Below, piece after piece: positions 794 through 64,000 of a stretch of DNA of 64,000 nt; positions within the stretch are counted from its first letter, which is position 1, and each line of letters opens with the position of its first letter. Source of the stretch: Myxococcales bacterium (GTDB lineage: Bacteria; Myxococcota_A; Polyangia; Haliangiales; Haliangiaceae). A program made the position numbers and the translations under genes. Location of the stretch: the NCBI GenBank assembly GCA_016707895.1, contig JADJGV010000002.1, positions 463,695 to 527,694 on the forward strand. Reading direction: 5' to 3'. Under the pieces are notes generated by a model. It saw only the letters and a program-made list of their open reading frames with translations, had not been told where the DNA came from and did not search any database.

Positions 794-1381
794 ATGAGCT
801 TCATCAACTACTCGTCGCGCGAGATCAACTGCAAGATCGTCTACTACGGGCCGGGTCTGTGCGGGAAGACCACCAACCTGCAGTACATCTACAACAAGAC
901 CAACCCCGAGGCGAAAGGGAAGATGATCTCCCTCGCCACGGAGACCGACCGCACGCTGTTCTTCGACTTCCTGCCGCTGTCGCTCGGTGAGATCCGCGGC
1001 TTCAAGACCCGCTTCCACCTGTACACGGTGCCGGGCCAGGTGTTCTACGACGCCAGCCGCAAGCTGATCTTGAAGGGCGTCGACGGCGTGGTGTTCGTCG
1101 GCGACTCGCAGCTCGAGCGCATGGAAGCCAACATCGAGTCGCTCGACAACCTGCGCACCAACCTGCAGGAGCAGGGCTACGACCTCGACAAGCTCCCCTA
1201 CGTCGTGCAGTTCAACAAGCGCGACCTGCCGAACTCGGCGCCGATGGAGGAGCTGCTCGAGGTGCTGAACCCGACCAAGGTCCCGCACTACGAGGCGGTC
1301 GCGACCAAGGGCGTCGGCGTGTTCGACACGCTCAAGGCGGTGGCCAAGCTGGTGCTGACCGAGCTGCGCAAGGCCGGCTGA
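794..1381 (+). CDS. mglA: MglA, Ras-like small GTPase (motility/polarity regulator)
   Basis: 195 aa. P-loop GPGLCGKTT; sequence ([33 protein letters not shown]...) nearly identical to M. xanthus MglA. Starts 12 nt after mglB. Confidence 0.95.
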
Positions 1382-3345
1382 TGGCCGGGATCGATTTCGG
1401 AGGAGCCATGACCGCGATCGCGCATCCGCGTTTCCGTACGGATCTGGTGGCCGAGCCCATCGACGACGGCGGCAAGCGCTTCATCGACGTCGTCGATCCC
1501 GACAGCGGCAACGGCTTCCGCTTCTTCGAGATCGAGTACTCGCTGGCGTGCGCCATGGACGGCGCGCGCGACATCGCCGGCATCCAGCGCTGGGCCCGCG
1601 AGGAGCTGGGCCTCGAGCCGTCCGCCGCCGAGGTGGCGACGGTGATCTCGACGCTCGGCGACCTCGGCTATCTCGAGGGCGCCGCGACGACCAGCATCGC
1701 CGCCGACGAGCCCGAGCTGGCCCCCGGCGTGGTGGCCGCGCGCCCGACCGCGGCGCCGATGAGCTTCGGCGACGTCGAGCTGGGCACCGCCGGCGCCGCG
1801 CCGCCGCGCGCGGTCGAGGACCTGCCCGCGGTCGACGACTTCGAGCTGGGCACCGCCGGTGGCGTCGCCCACCAGCCGAGCGCCCCGTCGATCACCGACG
1901 GCCCCGAGCTGGGCCCGTCGGGCGACGCCCGCATGATGGAGTTCGACGCCCCGACGCCGCCGCCCGCGGCGATGCCGACCGCGACGATGCGGCCGAGCTC
2001 GCGGCCCGACGCCGAGGACGACGGGCCGACCAACCTGCCCAAGCCGCAGTCGATCGCCGACGAGGACGAGGTGTCGGTCGACCTGGCCGATCACCTCGCG
2101 GTGTCGGCCTCCGACGTCAAGGAGGCGGTGCGCGCCTCCAAGGTCATGCAGGCGGTCGACATCCCCAAGGACGTGCTCGACCAGCTCGAGGCCAGCGAGC
2201 AGGCGGCCCGCGACACCGCCGAGCGCGAGGCTGCGGCCCGCGAGGCCGCGGCGCGTGAGCAGGCCGCGCGTGAGGCCGAGGCCCGTGAGGCCGCGGCGCG
2301 TGACGCCGCCGCCCGCGACGCCGCGGCGCGCGAGGCTGCGGCGCGTGAGGCCGCCGCGCGTGAGGCCGCCAGCCAGGCGGCGCGCGAGCAGGCCGGCCGG
2401 CCGGTGGCGGATCTGCCGCAGATCCCGGTCGGCGTGTCGAAGAAGAAGCCCGGCGTCGACGCGCCCAAGGACGACGACAAGGTCGCGACCCCGGTCGAGC
2501 CGCCCAAGGCCGGCACCAGCAAGGCGCTGGTGTTCGTGCTGGTGCTGGTGCTGCTCCTGGCCGGCGCCTTCGTGGTCTGGACCAAGGTCCTGAAGAAGCC
2601 GCTGCCGTGGGAGAAGTCGGACGAGGGCCAGACCGCCGCGCCGACCAAGCCGACCCAGCCGACGCCGCCCACGCCGCCGCCGCCCCCGCCGCCCCCGCCG
2701 GCGCCCACCGCGGCGCTGACCGAGAAGCCGGGCGACGTGTCGAACGTCGTCGCCGGTCAGGTCGGCGTGATCGCGTTCGTCGCCGCCGACGGCGCGCAGG
2801 TCGCGGTCGGTGACGAGCTGCTGCGCTTCAGCGCGAGCTCGGCCGACGAGAAGAAGCTGACCGGCCTCGACAACGATCTGACCGTCCGCTACCCGAAGCA
2901 GCTCAAGGACGCGACCGCGGCGCGCGACAAGGCGCAGGCCGCCGCCAACGCCGGCGCGCAGAAGGCGGCCGAGGCCAAGATGGCCGAGGTGCAGAAGAAG
3001 ATCGACGCCCGCACCGCCGAGCGCGACGCGCTGCGCGCCAAGCTCGACGGCCTGACCATCAAGGCGCCGATCGCCGGCGTGGTCAAGCTCGAGGGCAACA
3101 TCGCCAAGGGCGCGCGCACCACCGCCGACCAGGCGATCGCCACCGTCACCGGCCCGGCGTCGCTGATCGCGACCTTCACCATCCCGACCGGCGGCAAGAC
3201 GTACAGCCAGGACGCGTCGGTGATGGTGTCGGCCAAGGATCAGAAGGCCAACTGCACGGCGACCTCGGTCGACGGCCCCACGGTGGTCGTCACCTGTCCG
3301 CACGACGCCGGCATCGCCGCTGGCACGATGCTGACCCTCGAGTAG
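1381..3345 (+). CDS. Hypothetical bitopic membrane protein: N-terminal cytoplasmic domain, acidic/Pro-rich region, AAREA coiled-coil repeats, TM helix, PT-rich linker, C-terminal barrel-sandwich (HlyD/biotin-lipoyl-like) domain
   Basis: 654-aa ORF whose ATG overlaps the mglA stop (TGATG), indicating translational coupling. Hydrophobic stretch ALVFVLVLVLLLAGAFVVW, PTQPTPPTPPPPPPPPPAP linker, C-terminal beta-rich region. Function not recognised. Confidence 0.7.
   Translation: MAGIDFGGAMTAIAHPRFRTDLVAEPIDDGGKRFIDVVDPDSGNGFRFFEIEYSLACAMDGARDIAGIQRWAREELGLEPSAAEVATVISTLGDLGYLEGAATTSIAADEPELAPGVVAARPTAAPMSFGDVELGTAGAAPPRAVEDLPAVDDFELGTAGGVAHQPSAPSITDGPELGPSGDARMMEFDAPTPPPAAMPTATMRPSSRPDAEDDGPTNLPKPQSIADEDEVSVDLADHLAVSASDVKEAVRASKVMQAVDIPKDVLDQLEASEQAARDTAEREAAAREAAAREQAAREAEAREAAARDAAARDAAAREAAAREAAAREAASQAAREQAGRPVADLPQIPVGVSKKKPGVDAPKDDDKVATPVEPPKAGTSKALVFVLVLVLLLAGAFVVWTKVLKKPLPWEKSDEGQTAAPTKPTQPTPPTPPPPPPPPPAPTAALTEKPGDVSNVVAGQVGVIAFVAADGAQVAVGDELLRFSASSADEKKLTGLDNDLTVRYPKQLKDATAARDKAQAAANAGAQKAAEAKMAEVQKKIDARTAERDALRAKLDGLTIKAPIAGVVKLEGNIAKGARTTADQAIATVTGPASLIATFTIPTGGKTYSQDASVMVSAKDQKANCTATSVDGPTVVVTCPHDAGIAAGTMLTLE
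2215..2400 (+). repeat. In-frame tandem 15-nt (Ala-Ala-Arg-Glu/Asp-Ala)n coding repeat, about 12 units
   Basis: Nucleotide periodicity gcggcccgcgaggcc/gcggcgcgtgaggcc; encodes AAREAAAREQAAREAEAREAAARDAAARDAAAREAAAREAAAREAA. Confidence 0.8.
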
Positions 3346-59050: not shown

Positions 59051-60283
59051 CTACGCGACGACGATCTTGACCCGCTGCGGGCGCCGCTTGGCGTACTCGG
59101 CGTTGACCAGCTCGCGCTTGGGCACCGGCGGCGGGCGGCGGCGCCCGACGTTCAAGATCAGGCCGGCCAGGAACATCGTCAGGATCAGCGAGGTGCCGCC
59201 GTAGCTGACCAGCGGCAGGGTGATGCCCTTGTTGGGCACCACGCCGAACACCACGCCGGCGTTGAGCAGGGCCTGCAGGCCGAACATCGCGGTGATGCCG
59301 AACGCCAGGTAGCCGCCGAAGGTGTCGCGGGCGCCGAGCGCCGCCCGCATGCCGCGCCAAACCAGCAGCACGAACAGCCCCAGCACCAGCGCCACGCCGA
59401 TGAAGCCGAGCTCCTCGCCGATCGGCGCCAGGATGAAGTCGTTGTGGCCCTCGGGCATGTAGCCCAGCGACTGCCGCGAGTTGCCCAGGCCCAGGCCGGT
59501 GAGGCCGCCCGAGCCGAGCGACACGTGGGCCTGCACCATCTGGTAGGCCTCCCGATCGCTGAACGCCTCGGGGTTGAAGTACGCCATGAACCGGCGCATG
59601 CGCCACGGCGTGCCGACGATCAGCTGGTACGCCACCGGCATGGCCGCCAGGATCGCGAGCACGATGTAGGACACCCGCGCCCCGGCCATGAACAGCATCA
59701 TCAGCGTCGTGGTGCCGAGGATGATCGACGAGCCCAGGTCGGGCTGCAGCAGCAAGAGGCCCATCATCAGCGCGCACACCACCAGGTGCGGCACGAAGCC
59801 GATGGTGAAGGTCTTCACCTTGTCGGCCTTCTTCTGCAGGCTGTGCGCGAGGTAGACGATCAGCGCCAGCTTGGCCAGCTCGACCGGCTGGAACGACAGC
59901 GGCCCGATCAACAGCCAGCGGCGCGCGCCGTTGAGCGACGGCATCGCCAGGGTGGCGCCCAGCGCGAGCAGGCTGCACGCCAGGAGCGAGTACGCACGGT
60001 TGCGCAGCCGGCGGTAGTCGATGTGGGCCGCGGCGAACATCGCGAACGCGCCCAGCGCCAGGAACACGATCTGGCGCTTCAAGAAGAACGCCGGGTCGCC
60101 CTTGGTCGCCATCGCCTCGGCCGCGGTCGCGGCGTAGATCTCGACGGTCCCGATGCCCAGGAGCCCGAGGATCGTGCCGATCAGCACGACGTCGTAGGGG
60201 CGCTCGCTGACGTCCTCGACGGCCGCCTGCGCGGCGAGCGGCGGCGGCGCGGGAGCGTCGGCGGTGAGCGAGCTGGGCAGCAC
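59051..60283 (-). CDS. ftsW: SEDS-family peptidoglycan glycosyltransferase FtsW (or RodA)
   Basis: About 410 aa from an inferred GTG start (SD GAGAGG), 10 TM, SEDS motifs (...NPEAFSDREAYQMVQAHVSLGSGGLTG..., ...GITLPLVSYGGTSL...). Lies 8 kb from murG. Confidence 0.8.
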   Translation of the reverse strand: MLPSSLTADAPAPPPLAAQAAVEDVSERPYDVVLIGTILGLLGIGTVEIYAATAAEAMATKGDPAFFLKRQIVFLALGAFAMFAAAHIDYRRLRNRAYSLLACSLLALGATLAMPSLNGARRWLLIGPLSFQPVELAKLALIVYLAHSLQKKADKVKTFTIGFVPHLVVCALMMGLLLLQPDLGSSIILGTTTLMMLFMAGARVSYIVLAILAAMPVAYQLIVGTPWRMRRFMAYFNPEAFSDREAYQMVQAHVSLGSGGLTGLGLGNSRQSLGYMPEGHNDFILAPIGEELGFIGVALVLGLFVLLVWRGMRAALGARDTFGGYLAFGITAMFGLQALLNAGVVFGVVPNKGITLPLVSYGGTSLILTMFLAGLILNVGRRRPPPVPKRELVNAEYAKRRPQRVKIVVA

Positions 60284-60410
60284 GGACCTCTCGCCATCCT
60301 GCCGACTCGGGGCCGCCGGGCAACTTTTCGGTGCCCGGCCGCCACGATCCTCGCAGCGATTGCGCCCCGAACCGGAAAAAATAGGAGCGCGCCGCAACCG
60401 ATGCGTGGGG

Positions 60411-60434
60411 GCGACTTGACGATCGTCAAGTCGC
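60411..60434. promoter_or_regulatory. Perfect 24-bp palindrome GCGACTTGACGATCGTCAAGTCGC in the divergent ftsW / histidine-kinase intergenic region
   Basis: Exact reverse-complement symmetry; candidate dimeric-regulator operator (or bidirectional hairpin). Confidence 0.5.
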
Positions 60435-60546
60435 TCACCCGCGGCTCGTGGTCTCGTCCGGGCCTTGCGCGATCGGACTCTCTCGAACTCACCCCGGCGG
60501 GGTGAGCGCCCCGCCCTGGCATAGGCCGTGCTCACGGGATCGCAGC

Positions 60547-61611
60547 ATGGGAGCTGCCGTGGGGCCGGTCGAGCAAGGCGCTGTCGACGAGTCGACGGTG
60601 CTGGAGTCGCTCCCGACGGCGATGCTGGTCATCGACGCGGACGGCGTGATCGTGCGCGCCAACCGCCGGGCCCGCGAGATCCTCGACCGCCCCACCCTGG
60701 TCGGCACTCCGGCCGGCGAGATCCTCGGGCCGTGGCCGATGCCGCGGACCAACGACGTCGCGCGCTCCGAGCGCACGCTGCCCCGGCGCGATGGCACCGC
60801 GATCACGCTCGGGTTCTCGATGTCGTCGTTGCCCGACGGCGCGACGACGATCGTGTTCCAGGACATCACGCCGTGGCAGCGGCTGCGCGAGGAGCGCGAC
60901 CGCCTGATGCAGCTGGCGATGGTCGGCGAGGCGCTGCCCTCGATCCTCCACGAGCTCAAGAACCCGCTGGCCGCCCTCAACGCGGCGGTGGAGATCCTGA
61001 TCGAGGAGACCGCGCCGGGGCCGGTCCAGGACCAGCTCCACGCCGTGTTGCAGGAGGCGCGCCGGCTGCGCCTGGGCTTCGACGGCGTCGGGGCGGTCGG
61101 GCGGGCGCTGCGCTCGCGGCGCCACCAGGCGGTCGATCAGGCCTGCCGCGACTCGTTCCGGGTGCTGGAGATCCCGGCGCGGGCGGCCGGCATCAACACC
61201 CGCTGCGACGTGGTCGACCTGCCGCTGTTGCCGCTCGATCCGGCGGTGGTGCGGGCGATCGTCTTCAACCTCGTCACCAACGCGATCCACGCCTGCAGCC
61301 CGGGCGACGCGATCAACCTGCACGTCCGGCTGGTCGCCAACGGCCTGGCCCTGGCGCTCACCGTCGCCGACACCGGCACCGGCATGACCCACGACGTCTA
61401 CACCCGCTGCACGGAGCTGTTCTTCACCACCAAGCGCAACGGCTCGGGCATCGGCCTGGCGCTGGTGCGACAGGCGGTGACCGAGGCCGGCGGCGAGCTC
61501 GAGATCGAGTCGGTGCCGGGGTTCGGCACCTGCATCACCGCGCTGGTCCCGGTGATCGCCGCGCCGCGCGTCTCTACCCCCGAGGAGGGAACTCATGTCT
61601 CGCGTCGATGA
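60547..61611 (+). CDS. Cytoplasmic PAS-domain sensor histidine kinase
   Basis: M34 of ORF 60448..61611. PAS-like N-terminus, H-box HELKNPLAAL, N/G boxes (NLVTNAIHA, DTGTGM, GSGIGL). Confidence 0.85.
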   Translation: MGAAVGPVEQGAVDESTVLESLPTAMLVIDADGVIVRANRRAREILDRPTLVGTPAGEILGPWPMPRTNDVARSERTLPRRDGTAITLGFSMSSLPDGATTIVFQDITPWQRLREERDRLMQLAMVGEALPSILHELKNPLAALNAAVEILIEETAPGPVQDQLHAVLQEARRLRLGFDGVGAVGRALRSRRHQAVDQACRDSFRVLEIPARAAGINTRCDVVDLPLLPLDPAVVRAIVFNLVTNAIHACSPGDAINLHVRLVANGLALALTVADTGTGMTHDVYTRCTELFFTTKRNGSGIGLALVRQAVTEAGGELEIESVPGFGTCITALVPVIAAPRVSTPEEGTHVSRR

Positions 61612-61960
61612 CCTGAACCGTATCCTCCGGACGCTGCAGTCCGGCACGCCCGACATCGAGGCCAGCGCGCTGGTCTCCGAGGACGGCCTCATGATCGCCA
61701 GCGCGCTGCCGCAGCACGTGCAGGAGGTGCGGATCGCCGGCATGAGCTCGACGCTGTTGTCGCTCGGCATGCGCGCCGCCACCGAGCTGGGCCGCGGCAA
61801 CCTCGAGCAGGTGCTGATCCGCGGCACCAACGGCTACGTCGTGATGGTCAAGGCCAAGTCCGGGACCATGCTGCTCACCCTCACCACCAAGGAGGCCAAG
61901 CTGGGCCTCATCTTCCTCGACATGTCCCGGGCGGTCGAGGACATCGACCGGATCCTCTGA
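61595..61960 (+). CDS. Roadblock/LC7-domain protein (MglB paralog)
   Basis: 121 aa; ...IEASALVSEDGLMIASALPQ... typical Roadblock/LC7 alpha-beta-beta-alpha-beta-beta core. Overlaps the HK stop by 17 nt. Confidence 0.75.
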   Translation: MSRVDDLNRILRTLQSGTPDIEASALVSEDGLMIASALPQHVQEVRIAGMSSTLLSLGMRAATELGRGNLEQVLIRGTNGYVVMVKAKSGTMLLTLTTKEAKLGLIFLDMSRAVEDIDRIL

Positions 61961-61971
61961 AGGAGCACGTC

Positions 61972-62733
61972 ATGGCCTCGATCAACCTGTTCGACACCGG
62001 CAACCACAAGAACGTGCTGCTGGAGGACTTCTCGGGTGGCCTCGCGGTGCAGGCCAACCAGCACCTGATCATCCACGGCGCCAACGCGATGCTGCTCGAT
62101 CCAGGCGGCCACAAGGTCTACAACCGCGTGCTGTCGGAGACGCTCAGCTTGCTCGGCCCGCACGCCAAGCTGCGCTACCTGTTCCTGTCGCACCAGGACC
62201 CGGACATCGTCGCCGCCGTCAACGGCTGGCTGATGACCACCGACGCCGAGGCCTACGCGTCGAAGCTGTGGATCCGCTTCATCCCGCACTTCGGGCTCGA
62301 TCGCCTGGTCGAGGAGCGGCTGCGGCCGATCCCCGATCAGGGCATGGACCTCGATCTCGGCGGCTGCCTGCTGAAGATCCTGCCGGCCCACTTCCTCCAC
62401 TCGCCGGGCAACTTCCAGGTCTACGACCCGGTGGCCAAGATCCTGTACTCGGGCGACCTCGGCGCATCGCTGGGCACCGAGGGTCGGATCGTCGAGGACT
62501 TCGACGCCCACGTCCCCTTCATGGAGGGCTTCCACCGCCGGTACATGGCGTCCAACCGGGCGATGCGCGCCTGGGGCGCGATGGTGCGGCGCCTCGACAT
62601 CGAGACCATCGCGCCGCAGCACGGCGCGATGTTCCAGGGCCGCGCGATGTGCGAGCGCTTCATCGCCTGGTGCGAGGCGCTGCCGTGCGGCGTCGACCTG
62701 ATCGACGACCTGTATCCACAGGCCGCCGGGTGA
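61972..62733 (+). CDS. MBL-fold metallo-hydrolase (ODP/flavodiiron-type beta-lactamase-like domain)
   Basis: 253 aa with SHQDPD (HxHxDH-like) motif and additional His/Asp ligands. Confidence 0.65.
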   Translation: MASINLFDTGNHKNVLLEDFSGGLAVQANQHLIIHGANAMLLDPGGHKVYNRVLSETLSLLGPHAKLRYLFLSHQDPDIVAAVNGWLMTTDAEAYASKLWIRFIPHFGLDRLVEERLRPIPDQGMDLDLGGCLLKILPAHFLHSPGNFQVYDPVAKILYSGDLGASLGTEGRIVEDFDAHVPFMEGFHRRYMASNRAMRAWGAMVRRLDIETIAPQHGAMFQGRAMCERFIAWCEALPCGVDLIDDLYPQAAG

Positions 62734-62740
62734 GCCGGCC

Positions 62741-63805
62741 ATGCCCCGCGTGCTGATCCTCGAAGACGAGACCGTGCTGCGCGCGTCGATGGCCCGCGGC
62801 CTGGCGAAGCTCCCGGCCGAGGTCGACGAGGCCGGCACGCTGGCCGAGGCGATCGCCGCGCTCGATCGCGCGCTGCCCGACGTGATCGTCTCCGATCTCG
62901 ACCTGCCGGACGGCTCGGGCATCGAGCTGATCGGCGAGCTGGGGCGGCGCAAGGCGCGGGTGCCGGTGGTGTTCGTGTCGGCGTACCTGCGGGCGTTCCG
63001 CGCGCAGATCCCGCCCCACGCCGACGTCGAGGTGCGCGAGAAGCCGATCGCCCTCGAGGAGCTGCGCGCGCTGGTGCGCGAGCGGATCGGCGGCCGCGAC
63101 GAGGCGGTGGCGCCGTTCGCGGTGGTCGACTACCTGCAGCTCGCGTGCCTCGGCAAGCACTCGGTGGCGATCGACGTCGCCAGCCGCGATCGTCGCCGCG
63201 GGCGCATCGAGGTCGTGCGCGGCGACATCTGGCACGCGGTCGACGATCACGGCGCCGGCCCGCCCGCGTTCAAGCGGCTGGCGTTCGGCACCGCCGCCGA
63301 GGTCACCTGCCGCACGCTGCACGGGTCGCCAGGCCCGCGCACCATCGAGGGCCGGTGGGAGGCGTTGTTGATGGACTCGGCCCGCGAGCACGACGAGGAG
63401 AGCTACAGCGGGGCGGCGCAGGACGCCGAGCTCGACCTCGCCATCCACGAGTTCGAGGACGAGCAGATCGCGTGGCCACCGGCCGGCGGCCTGGTGGCCG
63501 CCGAGGCCGCGCTGGCCCCCCGCCCCGCGCCGCCGCCGACGGCGCCGCCCGCGCCGACGCCGCTGGCCACCGGCAGCGAGGCCTCGGTGGCGCGGGTCGT
63601 CGCCGACGAGTTCACCGTGACCCGCGACCGCGCGGTCGACGCGCTGCTGGTGCGCGACTACGCCACCGCCGCGCAGCTGTTCGCGGTCGCCCACGCGCTG
63701 CGCCCCGAGGACGGCGCGGTCGCAGCCAACCTGGAACGCCTGGCCGCCCTCGGGTTCGCCAGCGCACCCGAGCAACCGGAGCAACCGGAGGACCACGATG
63801 CCTAG
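62741..63805 (+). CDS. Response regulator: receiver (REC) domain fused to PATAN/DUF4388 domain and acidic Pro-rich tail
   Basis: REC ([10 protein letters not shown]...[14 protein letters not shown]...); PATAN-like segment ([44 protein letters not shown]). Confidence 0.75.
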
Positions 63806-63999
63806 ACGGATCGCGATCGTCAGTCAAAAGGGCGGGGTCGGGAAGACCACCGTCTGCCTCAACCTCGCGCTCGCCCTGGCCGAGCGCGGCCGACGCACGC
63901 TGCTGGTCGACCTCGACCCGCAGGGCGGCGTCGGTCACTCGCTGGCCAAGGGCGACGGCGAGCTGATCGGCCTGGCCGACGTGCTGGCGGGCCAGGCCA
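63798..63999 (+). CDS. ParA/MinD-family ATPase (5' partial, runs off window)
   Basis: [31 protein letters not shown] deviant Walker A; overlaps the RR stop. Confidence 0.75.
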
Positions 64000-64000
64000 G

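Follow-up and report, generated by a model that had tools for sequence, protein, structure and literature searches.

A conserved Roadblock–ODP gene pair with alternative terminal cassettes, and its ParA-bearing version in a Myxococcales bacterium

What does a Roadblock protein partner with when it is encoded beside a sensor kinase and a ParA-like ATPase instead of a small GTPase? The question is raised by a 64,000-nucleotide stretch of DNA from a Myxococcales bacterium (GenBank assembly GCA_016707895.1, contig JADJGV010000002.1, positions 463,695 to 527,694), hereafter the window, which ends in a plus-strand operon for a histidine kinase (HK), a Roadblock/LC7 protein, a metallo-β-lactamase (MBL)-fold protein, a response regulator with REC and PATAN domains, and a ParA-like ATPase. 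An earlier reading of the window, made from its letters without database searches (the sequence-only reading), regarded the operon as a conservon-like module, with kinase and Roadblock as its hallmark pair and a circuit feeding ParA as its possible purpose. Our comparison of related loci re-centers the finding on a pair of genes, the Roadblock gene and the gene for the MBL-fold protein, which belongs to the ODP family, together with a swappable terminal cassette. In the window, this cassette is of the ParA kind.

The five plus-strand genes proposed from the sequence alone were borne out, coordinates and spacings included, and all of the domain calls received significant profile matches. The source contig, available in two public assemblies (our loci L001 and L002), extends the unit beyond the window end. 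The operon has six genes, not five, in the following order:

60547-61611, plus strand: soluble histidine kinase of PAS-HisKA-HATPase type, 354 amino acids (Pfam; same start in the gene call of the source contig)
61595-61960, plus strand: Robl1, a single-domain Roadblock/LC7 protein, 121 amino acids (Pfam Robl_LC7)
61972-62733, plus strand: ODP-family MBL-fold protein, predicted di-iron, 253 amino acids, a stand-alone FprA-like domain without flavodoxin (Pfam ODP)
62741-63805, plus strand: response regulator, 354 amino acids, consisting of REC, PATAN (DUF4388), a Pro/acidic linker and a C-terminal TPR-like motif (Pfam)
63798-64000, plus strand, running past the window end: 5′-terminal 67 codons of the gene for a ParA/Soj-type ATPase (translation and source contig)
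L001:1990-2553, equivalent to window positions 64582-65145 and beyond its end: Robl2, 187 amino acids (source contig)

From the HK gene to the ParA gene, neighbors overlap by 17 nucleotides (nt), are separated by 11 and then 7 nt, and overlap by 8 nt. Completed on the source contig, ParA is a 270-amino-acid protein with intact ATPase motifs (L001:1206-2018, ending at window-equivalent position 64610); its membership in the unit is upheld. The start of the Robl2 gene overlaps the end of the ParA gene by 29 nt, and a convergent MshEN gene follows.

We searched one genome per species (185,579 species) with two peptide patterns specific to this ODP subfamily. The scan yielded at least 545 relatives, of which the best 80 were analyzed. 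Together with three independently fetched loci, they gave 83 loci, which were compared by phmmer against open reading frames (ORFs) in all six frames; seven loci (L002, L004, L005, L087, L089, L090, and L091) were annotated with Pfam. In 80 of the 83 loci, the ODP gene has a Roadblock gene within 5 kb; the distance from the end of an upstream Roadblock gene to the ODP start is 150 nt at most in 66 loci and about 570 nt at most in 75. The conserved core is the Robl1–ODP pair, and the other layers vary around it, giving these architectures:

Robl1, ODP, OmpA-like protein, unannotated membrane protein: 29 loci; Alpha-, Beta-, and Gammaproteobacteria
HK, Robl1, ODP, REC-PATAN regulator, OmpA-like protein, unannotated membrane protein: 14 loci; Myxococcota and Bradymonadia
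Robl1 and ODP only: 13 loci; mostly Gammaproteobacteria
HK, Robl1, ODP, REC-PATAN regulator, ParA, Robl2 (the window type): 11 loci, plus one without Robl2 and one without ParA; Polyangiaceae, Anaeromyxobacter, Archangium, unclassified Myxococcota, and one unclassified bacterium
HK, Robl1, ODP, REC-PATAN regulator: one Thermoanaerobaculia locus

The co-occurrence of kinase, Roadblock, MBL-fold protein, REC-PATAN regulator, and ParA expected from the sequence alone is complete in the window-type loci, while across all loci only Roadblock and ODP are constant. The proposed hallmark pair of kinase and Roadblock is displaced accordingly: the constant partner is ODP, and proteobacterial Roadblock–ODP pairs occur without kinase or regulator. 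HK and the REC-PATAN regulator stand together in 31 of the 33 kinase-bearing loci of the ODP scan. No locus was recorded with HK and without the regulator, and five have the regulator without a detected HK, some of them truncated by contig ends. This two-gene layer is an optional add-on that is almost exclusive to Myxococcota.

The ODP scan contains 12 loci with the gene order of the window and gaps of no more than 90 nt (11 have six genes, and one lacks Robl2), and starting from ParA led to further such loci; the idea of one conserved, tightly packed unit therefore holds. None of the genes that flank the operon in the window and its source contig (FtsW/RodA, GST, CotH, QueC, and MshEN) was found near the module at any other locus. 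Because the flanking genes are not conserved, the six-gene block is a selected unit. A link to cell division (through FtsW) or to MshEN as a general feature of the module was considered and rejected for the same reason. With co-occurrence conserved and the Roadblock assignment passing a profile search, as described below, the sequence-only reading stands on both of these points.

Some loci depart from a single copy of each gene. The ODP gene is duplicated or in tandem in L024 and L028 (in each, ODP at 0 and about +3.9 kb) and in L033 (a second ODP at +3.2 kb), and L078 has three Robl1-like genes. Assembly JADJMO01 carries two different module types on two contigs (L045 and L082).

The last two genes of the module are the part that is exchanged. 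About 46 loci have a cassette of an OmpA/MotB-like gene and a gene for a transmembrane Roadblock protein (the unannotated membrane protein above, or “U”). The MotB-like partner combines an N-terminal transmembrane helix with an OmpA peptidoglycan-binding domain (for example, L004:8770-10108 and L005:8406-10211 for the whole cassette). In the U protein, a coiled-coil-like stretch lies between an N-terminal transmembrane helix and a C-terminal domain; the latter has weak Robl_LC7 and LAMTOR5 matches and is homologous to Robl2 (hhalign probability 79%, E value of 1.6e-5 over 90 columns). ParA with soluble Robl2 and the OmpA-like protein with membrane Roadblock are never mixed within an operon; the only locus scored with both (L078) has a weak ParA match on the opposite strand about 5 kb away. 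The terminal cassettes are two mutually exclusive alternatives with a homologous Roadblock domain. In about 14 loci, the complete set of HK, Robl1, ODP, and REC-PATAN regulator is joined to the OmpA cassette instead of ParA and Robl2. Since the same set occurs with the OmpA cassette, the REC-PATAN regulator does not need ParA as its target, and the proposal of a circuit feeding ParA is weakened. ParA looks like a swappable localization device.

The ODP protein of the window is, judging from its sequence, a bona fide member of the ODP family with a predicted di-iron site. It matches the Pfam profile ODP at 3e-71 (239.7 bits against a cutoff of 27.2) and Lactamase_B at 1.8e-21, and the solved ODPs 6qrq (6.5e-71) and 6qnm (4e-61) align with it over its full length. 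The HQDPD, LHS, SGD(L/I)GA, and APQHGA motifs are identical to those of 6qrq and 6qnm, and the histidine of P(A/S)HF is kept. Against solved ODPs, the protein scores 210 to 242 bits, compared with 587 against itself; the flavodiiron reductase 2q9u is matched at 1.3e-4 only, so the sensor ODPs are closer. Identity to the window ODP is 65 to 74% in 80 genomes of Myxococcota, Alpha-, Beta-, and Gammaproteobacteria, Bradymonadia, and Thermoanaerobaculia, and the best 120 database relatives, including ones from Burkholderiaceae and Chromatiaceae, are at least 67% identical; the ODP alignment has 92 invariant columns. The characterized ODP of Treponema denticola is described as an O2 sensor (PMC7666581, citing Muok 2019). 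At one Polyangiaceae locus (L091:7359-8662), the ODP gene is followed by an overlapping gene for a 183-amino-acid protoglobin, a heme gas-sensor fold, which may hint a second time at O2, NO, or CO as the theme of the module. Record titles of carriers include Competibacter, Defluviicoccus, Nitrosomonas, and Gallionella, and many carriers would appear to belong to taxa typical of oxic/anoxic-interface habitats.

Robl1 passes the profile search comfortably, matching Robl_LC7 at 4.9e-16 (58.7 bits against a cutoff of 23). Its best solved relatives are a Thorarchaeota Roadblock (7f8m, 1e-26), Asgard Roadblock3 (9jue, 7e-15), and CvnB5 (3leq, 3.8e-9), and its matches to solved Roadblocks span 1e-26 to 1e-7. 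A search of the PDB with Robl1 returned no MglB chain at an E value below 1, and the comparison with the window’s own MglB is not significant (BLASTP E = 0.8); the window’s canonical MglB and MglA match the structures of their Myxococcus xanthus counterparts, at 1e-58 for MglB and 2e-108 for MglA. The label “MglB paralog” given to Robl1 from the sequence alone thus holds at the level of the superfamily and is not supported at that of sequence. Robl1 orthologs from Myxococcota, Bradymonadia, and Thermoanaerobaculia are 68 to 78% identical, and identity falls to 55 to 56% for the C-terminal domains of fused proteobacterial versions and to 40% for one stand-alone gammaproteobacterial Roadblock. 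The fused form, in which a longer protein has Robl1 as its C-terminal domain, is seen at L004:6938-7981 and L005:6051-7334; the N terminus is degenerate and REC-like in Burkholderiaceae (Response_reg 25.5 bits, under the cutoff) and weakly AAA_22/AAA-lid-like in Chromatiaceae.

HK and the REC-PATAN regulator are, by their motifs, an orthodox two-component pair with predicted phosphotransfer. HK matches PAS_8 (2.6e-6), HisKA (4.2e-7), and HATPase_c (6.5e-19), and its H box HELKNPL, G1 box DTGTGM, and G2 box GSGIGL are kept in 18 of 18 orthologs. Pfam gave no HAMP match in HK, and its sequence has no hydrophobic N-terminal segment; the C terminus reads ...VIAAPRVSTPEEGTHVSRR, without LPxR. In the regulator, REC (Response_reg, 1.3e-14) occupies residues 4 to 112 and PATAN (DUF4388, 5.1e-6, 27 bits against a cutoff of 25) residues 126 to 220, followed by the TPR-like motif. 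The acidic pocket of REC (D9 and E10), the phosphoacceptor D52, and K101 are invariant in 11 regulators. DUF4388 is matched in 10 of 11 regulator orthologs (best 2.4e-7) and TPR_2 in 3 of 11, and the search for solved relatives by sequence returned none for the C-terminal half of the regulator. PATAN is described as a protein-binding output domain (bioRxiv 10.1101/2021.06.11.447907).

ParA can be assigned by sequence to the Soj/ParA class rather than to MinD. The full protein matches AAA_31 at 4.9e-34 and CbiA at 3e-21 (the fragment in the window matches both at about 1e-16), and its best solved relatives are the orphan ParA of Mycobacterium smegmatis (4pfs, 5e-35) and Thermus Soj (1wcv, 1.6e-32). 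It has a deviant Walker A motif with the signature lysine (KGGVGKT), an A′ motif (DLDPQG), and LIDTPSG; the deviant Walker A motif is present in 12 of 12 orthologs and the A′ and B motifs in most. The C terminus has a conserved PEARRF(D/E)LLA helix and a terminal R-x-L-L, with no obvious membrane-targeting helix. All 12 window-type ParAs end in such a tail, R/Q-x-L-L (or L-V), after a variable charged stretch (L001:1930-2018 and orthologs). The tail is encoded within the overlap with the Robl2 start, which is 20 to 29 nt long in most window-type loci, and may have a function as a motif or simply result from the overlapping of the two genes.

Robl2 is predicted to be a second Roadblock protein, an assignment that comes from its structure model because the profile-profile comparison with Robl1 is weak (hhalign E value of 0.0022, probability 13%, 34 columns). 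Its Robl_LC7 match is subthreshold (19 bits), with similarly weak matches in 8 of 10 orthologs. The AlphaFold2 model, built with database homologs, has a mean predicted local distance difference test score of 79, rising to about 90 for residues 70 to 187, and the topology of its C-terminal domain (α-β-β-α-β-β-β-α) is that of the Roadblock fold. A Foldseek search of the PDB with this model returned Roadblock-fold proteins for all of the top 50 matches, with probability 1.00, among them MglB, MP1/p14, Ragulator/LAMTOR subunits, Rag C-terminal domains, and Asgard Roadblocks. Given this predicted fold, the operon would therefore encode two Roadblock proteins. In front of the domain lies a conserved, basic N-terminal helix (consensus SSDLExARxLSRRLRG); after it come a YVRF motif and a linker rich in Pro and Ala.

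Of the 12 operon ParAs in the ODP scan, 11 precede a soluble Robl2. Approached from the ParA side, four of five sampled homologs (58 to 62% identity) lie in the module, in Minicystis, Byssovorax, and Polyangiaceae genomes and one further assembly. The Polyangiaceae locus (L091) is rearranged, with a gene order of PATAN protein, kinase, Robl1, REC, ParA, Robl2, and ODP.

The surroundings of the operon in the window and on the source contig are as follows:

60283-60546: divergent intergenic region of 264 bp between an FtsW/RodA-family gene (minus strand) and the HK gene, presumed promoter region
59051-60535, minus strand: gene of the FtsW/RodA/SpoVE family, the divergent upstream neighbor; the listed ORF has a long N-terminal extension, and the gene call on L002 gives 410 amino acids
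55174-56844, minus strand: secreted CotH/C-type-lectin protein, also an upstream neighbor
L001:2565-3650, minus strand, window-equivalent 65157-66242: convergent MshEN gene, 361 amino acids, closing the unit
299-781 and 794-1381: canonical mglB and mglA, at the opposite end of the window from the operon
1381-3345, plus strand: ORF of 654 amino acids directly after mglA, its start codon touching the mglA stop codon

On the source contig (L002), the FtsW start is called at window-equivalent position 60282 and the HK start at 60547. A consensus scan of the operon for sigma-70 promoters and terminators gave no match and is uninformative in a genome of 72% G+C, so the region at 60283-60546 is a promoter only presumptively. 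Neither CotH nor FtsW/RodA is kept beside the module elsewhere. The MshEN gene likewise adjoins the module at this locus and no other; its product carries an MshEN/GspE_N domain at the N terminus (Pfam 9.5e-11), together with an MshE-type cyclic di-GMP-binding motif (NCBIfam 5.4e-8), and lacks an ATPase domain. It could, by analogy, be a partner of the REC-PATAN regulator, because PATAN is reported to bind the GspE_N-type N terminus of PilB1. The product of the ORF after mglA combines acidic/Ala repeats (AAREAAAREQAAREAEAREAAARDAAARD...) with a poly-Pro tract and a hydrophobic segment. At the 68 to 79% G+C of the window, 101 ORFs of at least 250 amino acids fit into 64 kb, and spurious long ORFs shadow nearly every real gene on the opposite strand or in other frames; ORF length alone is therefore no evidence of coding here.

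How might these parts work together? ODPs are said to sense Fe(II) as well and to act on the kinase CheA. We tentatively favor, at somewhat short of an even chance, a reading in which a Roadblock–ODP complex senses O2, NO, or iron, signals through HK and the regulator, and owes its position to ParA, while Robl2 serves as adaptor or activator. What we infer in it are the ligand, every protein contact, the signaling direction, and the role in positioning. ODP would bind O2 at its di-iron site like the solved ODPs, with NO or Fe(II) as alternative signals, and the ligand state would alter how ODP engages a Roadblock platform made of a Robl1 dimer or a Robl1/Robl2 heterodimer. In Myxococcota, this platform would modulate the soluble PAS kinase, which would phosphorylate the REC-PATAN-TPR regulator, and the PATAN and TPR parts would serve as protein-binding outputs toward a target outside the operon. 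The last two genes would form a localization device. In most lineages, the complex would be held at the envelope by the MotB/OmpA-like protein and the membrane Roadblock, a tether whose place the Soj/ParA-type ATPase and soluble Robl2 would take in the window version. The basic N-terminal helix and Pro/Ala-rich linker of Robl2 could then act as an adaptor and an ATPase-activating peptide, and the sensor complex would be distributed by ParA, probably across the nucleoid, in the way that chemoreceptor clusters are by PpfA/TlpT and ParC/ParP.

Several observations weigh against this reading. The proteobacterial Robl1–ODP core comes without a recognizable signaling output, and ODP could be an enzyme rather than a sensor. 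The basic N-terminal peptide of Robl2 is only moderately conserved, and the ortholog in L007 lacks the Arg cluster. A Robl1/Robl2 heterodimer is an analogy and not a result, because the sequence similarity between the two proteins is weak. One ParA locus (L009) has no detectable Robl2, and one ParA homolog of 61% identity (L088) lies outside the module. The clustering of most window-type ODPs comes from a neighbor-joining tree without support values. As to L088, its ParA gene (L088:488-3655) sits between a gene for a 663-amino-acid protein without Pfam match and an overlapping 65-amino-acid ORF, and may belong to a different ParA system in Myxococcota.

In the main rival explanation, which refines the logic of the sequence-only reading, the Roadblocks may be nucleoside triphosphatase (NTPase) regulators, with ParA in the GTPase slot as an output that positions some cargo outside the module, for example the chromosome, the divisome, or a motility machine. 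Robl1, Robl2, or both, under the control of ODP, HK, and the REC-PATAN regulator, would then switch the ParA ATPase cycle. The Roadblock superfamily is indeed linked to NTPase regulation (MglB for MglA and CvnB for CvnD, with CvnB5 related to Robl1), ParA and Robl2 are strictly coupled with translationally overlapped genes, and PATAN binds the ATPase PilB1 in Synechocystis (bioRxiv 10.1101/2021.06.11.447907); an FtsW/RodA gene also lies divergently beside the operon in the window. Yet that adjacency, like all other flanks, is not conserved, no cargo gene is conserved beside ParA, and the known PATAN target is a PilB-type N-domain and not ParA. HK, Robl1, ODP, and REC-PATAN occur without ParA in about 14 loci and Robl1–ODP occurs without any NTPase in about 45, so the module does not need an NTPase. 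We regard this explanation as unlikely.

A different kind of output would arise if the Roadblock acted in trans on the MglA/MglB switch, as MglC does, and so passed an oxygen or redox signal to front-rear polarity and motility. Work on M. xanthus describes Roadblock–Roadblock interactions that regulate MglB (MglB–MglC, RomY), MglB homologs have been noted near PATAN proteins (PMC4316618, citing Makarova 2006), and an mglBA pair lies in the same window. That pair is 60 kb from the operon, however, and the link drawn to it from the sequence alone comes down to shared residence in the window. A phmmer search with the window’s MglA against six-frame ORFs found no MglA-like GTPase in 86 loci, Robl1 has no significant similarity to MglB, and conservation of the Robl1–ODP pair is just as strong in Alpha-, Beta-, and Gammaproteobacteria. 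Signaling to Mgl in trans is very doubtful in our judgment.

If ODP were an enzyme, scavenging O2 or NO or acting as a phosphodiesterase-type metallohydrolase, the operon would serve in stress or detoxification, and its other genes would do no more than regulate expression or stability. The MBL fold, the FprA-like annotation in source databases, and the very high conservation of ODP, which is typical of enzymes, all fit such a role. It is harder to reconcile with the closest solved relatives, which are sensor ODPs and not flavodiiron reductases, and with the lack of a flavodoxin or other electron-donor domain in ODP or the operon. The operon also has no transcription factor, because the output of its regulator is PATAN/TPR and not DNA binding. 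We consider a detoxification unit very doubtful. Finally, that the genes are juxtaposed by chance or form separate transcription units is scarcely credible: the consensus scan mapped no promoter or terminator, but the same order and spacing (no more than 90 nt, with several overlaps) recur in at least 12 loci of different myxobacterial families and beyond, with flanks that are not conserved.

In the open literature, we found no paper that links Roadblock with ODP, flavodiiron proteins, or ParA or that describes the module, which agrees with the sequence-only reading in treating it as undescribed; most subscription journals lay outside this search, so absence is not proof. The Roadblock–ODP pairing is apparently both widespread and undescribed, and the cassette of OmpA-like protein and membrane Roadblock seems to be undescribed as well. 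The literature searched likewise held no report of a Roadblock fold as a ParA partner. Wuichet and Søgaard-Andersen counted 328 orphan homologs of MglB that lack coupling to a GTPase, none of them characterized (PMC4316618). Our results place an orphan Roadblock family in a defined context, an obligate genomic partnership with ODP at 65 to 74% ODP identity across distant phyla. We would put forward, as a broader proposition that we think somewhat unlikely to hold in full, that Roadblock–ODP is a widespread, unrecognized sensory unit for gas, redox, or iron that works without a small GTPase, with close relatives in about 545 or more of 185,579 species genomes, and that in the myxobacterial version seen in the window a Roadblock-fold protein is the cognate partner and ATPase activator of a ParA. 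If true, ODP sensing would extend beyond chemotaxis, swapping a cassette of two genes would move the anchor of a signaling complex between the envelope and a ParA system, and orphan MglB-like proteins would gain a function. It would also add a new fold to the ParA partners, with the first Roadblock–ParA pairing, and would extend the principle that Roadblocks regulate NTPases from Ras-like GTPases to the ParA/MinD family. Since the components are small and soluble and cultured carriers are suggested (the isolate Bradyrhizobium sp. SSBR45G), direct biochemical and cell-biological tests are feasible; the module is also found in assemblies assigned to Anaeromyxobacter, Archangium, Minicystis, and Byssovorax.

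Among known systems, conservons (CvnA kinase, CvnB Roadblock, CvnC DUF742 protein, and CvnD GTPase) resemble the operon in having a kinase gene followed by a short Roadblock gene, and CvnB5 is related to Robl1. The likeness ends there. No DUF742 or GTPase Pfam match was obtained in the six products of the window operon or recorded in the seven Pfam-annotated loci, the Roadblock tracks ODP and not the kinase, and the hosts are Myxococcota, not Actinomycetota. The CvnA kinase is membrane bound, with transmembrane and HAMP segments and a C-terminal LPxR (PMC4316618), in contrast to the soluble PAS kinase of the window, which has none of these features. With the MglA/MglB/MglC system of M. xanthus, the operon shares the presence of two different Roadblock-fold proteins in one myxobacterial system, and the Robl2 model superposes on MglB; it differs in that Robl1 is not detectably similar to MglB, no MglA is encoded in the locus, and the module also occurs in proteobacteria. 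Since no MglA-like GTPase was found in 86 loci and no DUF742 match in the window operon or the seven Pfam-annotated loci, and since Robl1 has no significant similarity to MglB, the operon is neither a conservon nor an Mgl module, and the conservon-like framing is not supported.

The regulator recalls PatA, PixG, PixE, and LsiR in combining REC with PATAN (DUF4388 above the cutoff). Here the order is REC-PATAN-TPR rather than PATAN-REC, with a C-terminal TPR-like motif, and the operon contains no Tax/Che or pilus genes.

The sensory component has its counterpart in ODP chemotaxis, in which Treponema denticola and Thermotoga maritima combine an ODP with a sensor-less cytoplasmic chemoreceptor and CheA, the characterized ODPs being genetically coupled to that chemoreceptor (PMC7666581). 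The protein is of the same family and is a stand-alone cytoplasmic protein in both cases, and it is encoded beside the signaling proteins that it presumably controls, a histidine kinase included. The module described here differs in its partners: the called genes of the seven Pfam-annotated loci include none of the MCP, CheA, and CheW families, the constant partner is a Roadblock, and the signaling layer consists of a PAS-HisKA kinase and a PATAN regulator. The ODP of the window is therefore not one of the chemotaxis-coupled kind. The ODP subfamily is also much more conserved, at the 65 to 74% identity across phyla given above.

The terminal cassette of the window finds its counterpart in ParA positioning systems such as PpfA/TlpT, ParC/ParP, and PomXYZ, which use N-terminal basic-peptide activators. 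ParA-type ATPases position chemosensory arrays (PMC11407121), and activators of ParA/MinD proteins typically have an N-terminal positively charged stretch grafted onto an interaction domain (PMC7993993; PMC11407121). The operon likewise places a Soj/ParA-class ATPase inside a signaling operon, and Robl2, with its positively charged N-terminal stretch, flexible linker, and predicted interaction domain, has the layout of such an activator. What sets it apart is that the partner domain is predicted to have a Roadblock fold and that the cargo would be an ODP/Roadblock complex rather than a chemoreceptor array.

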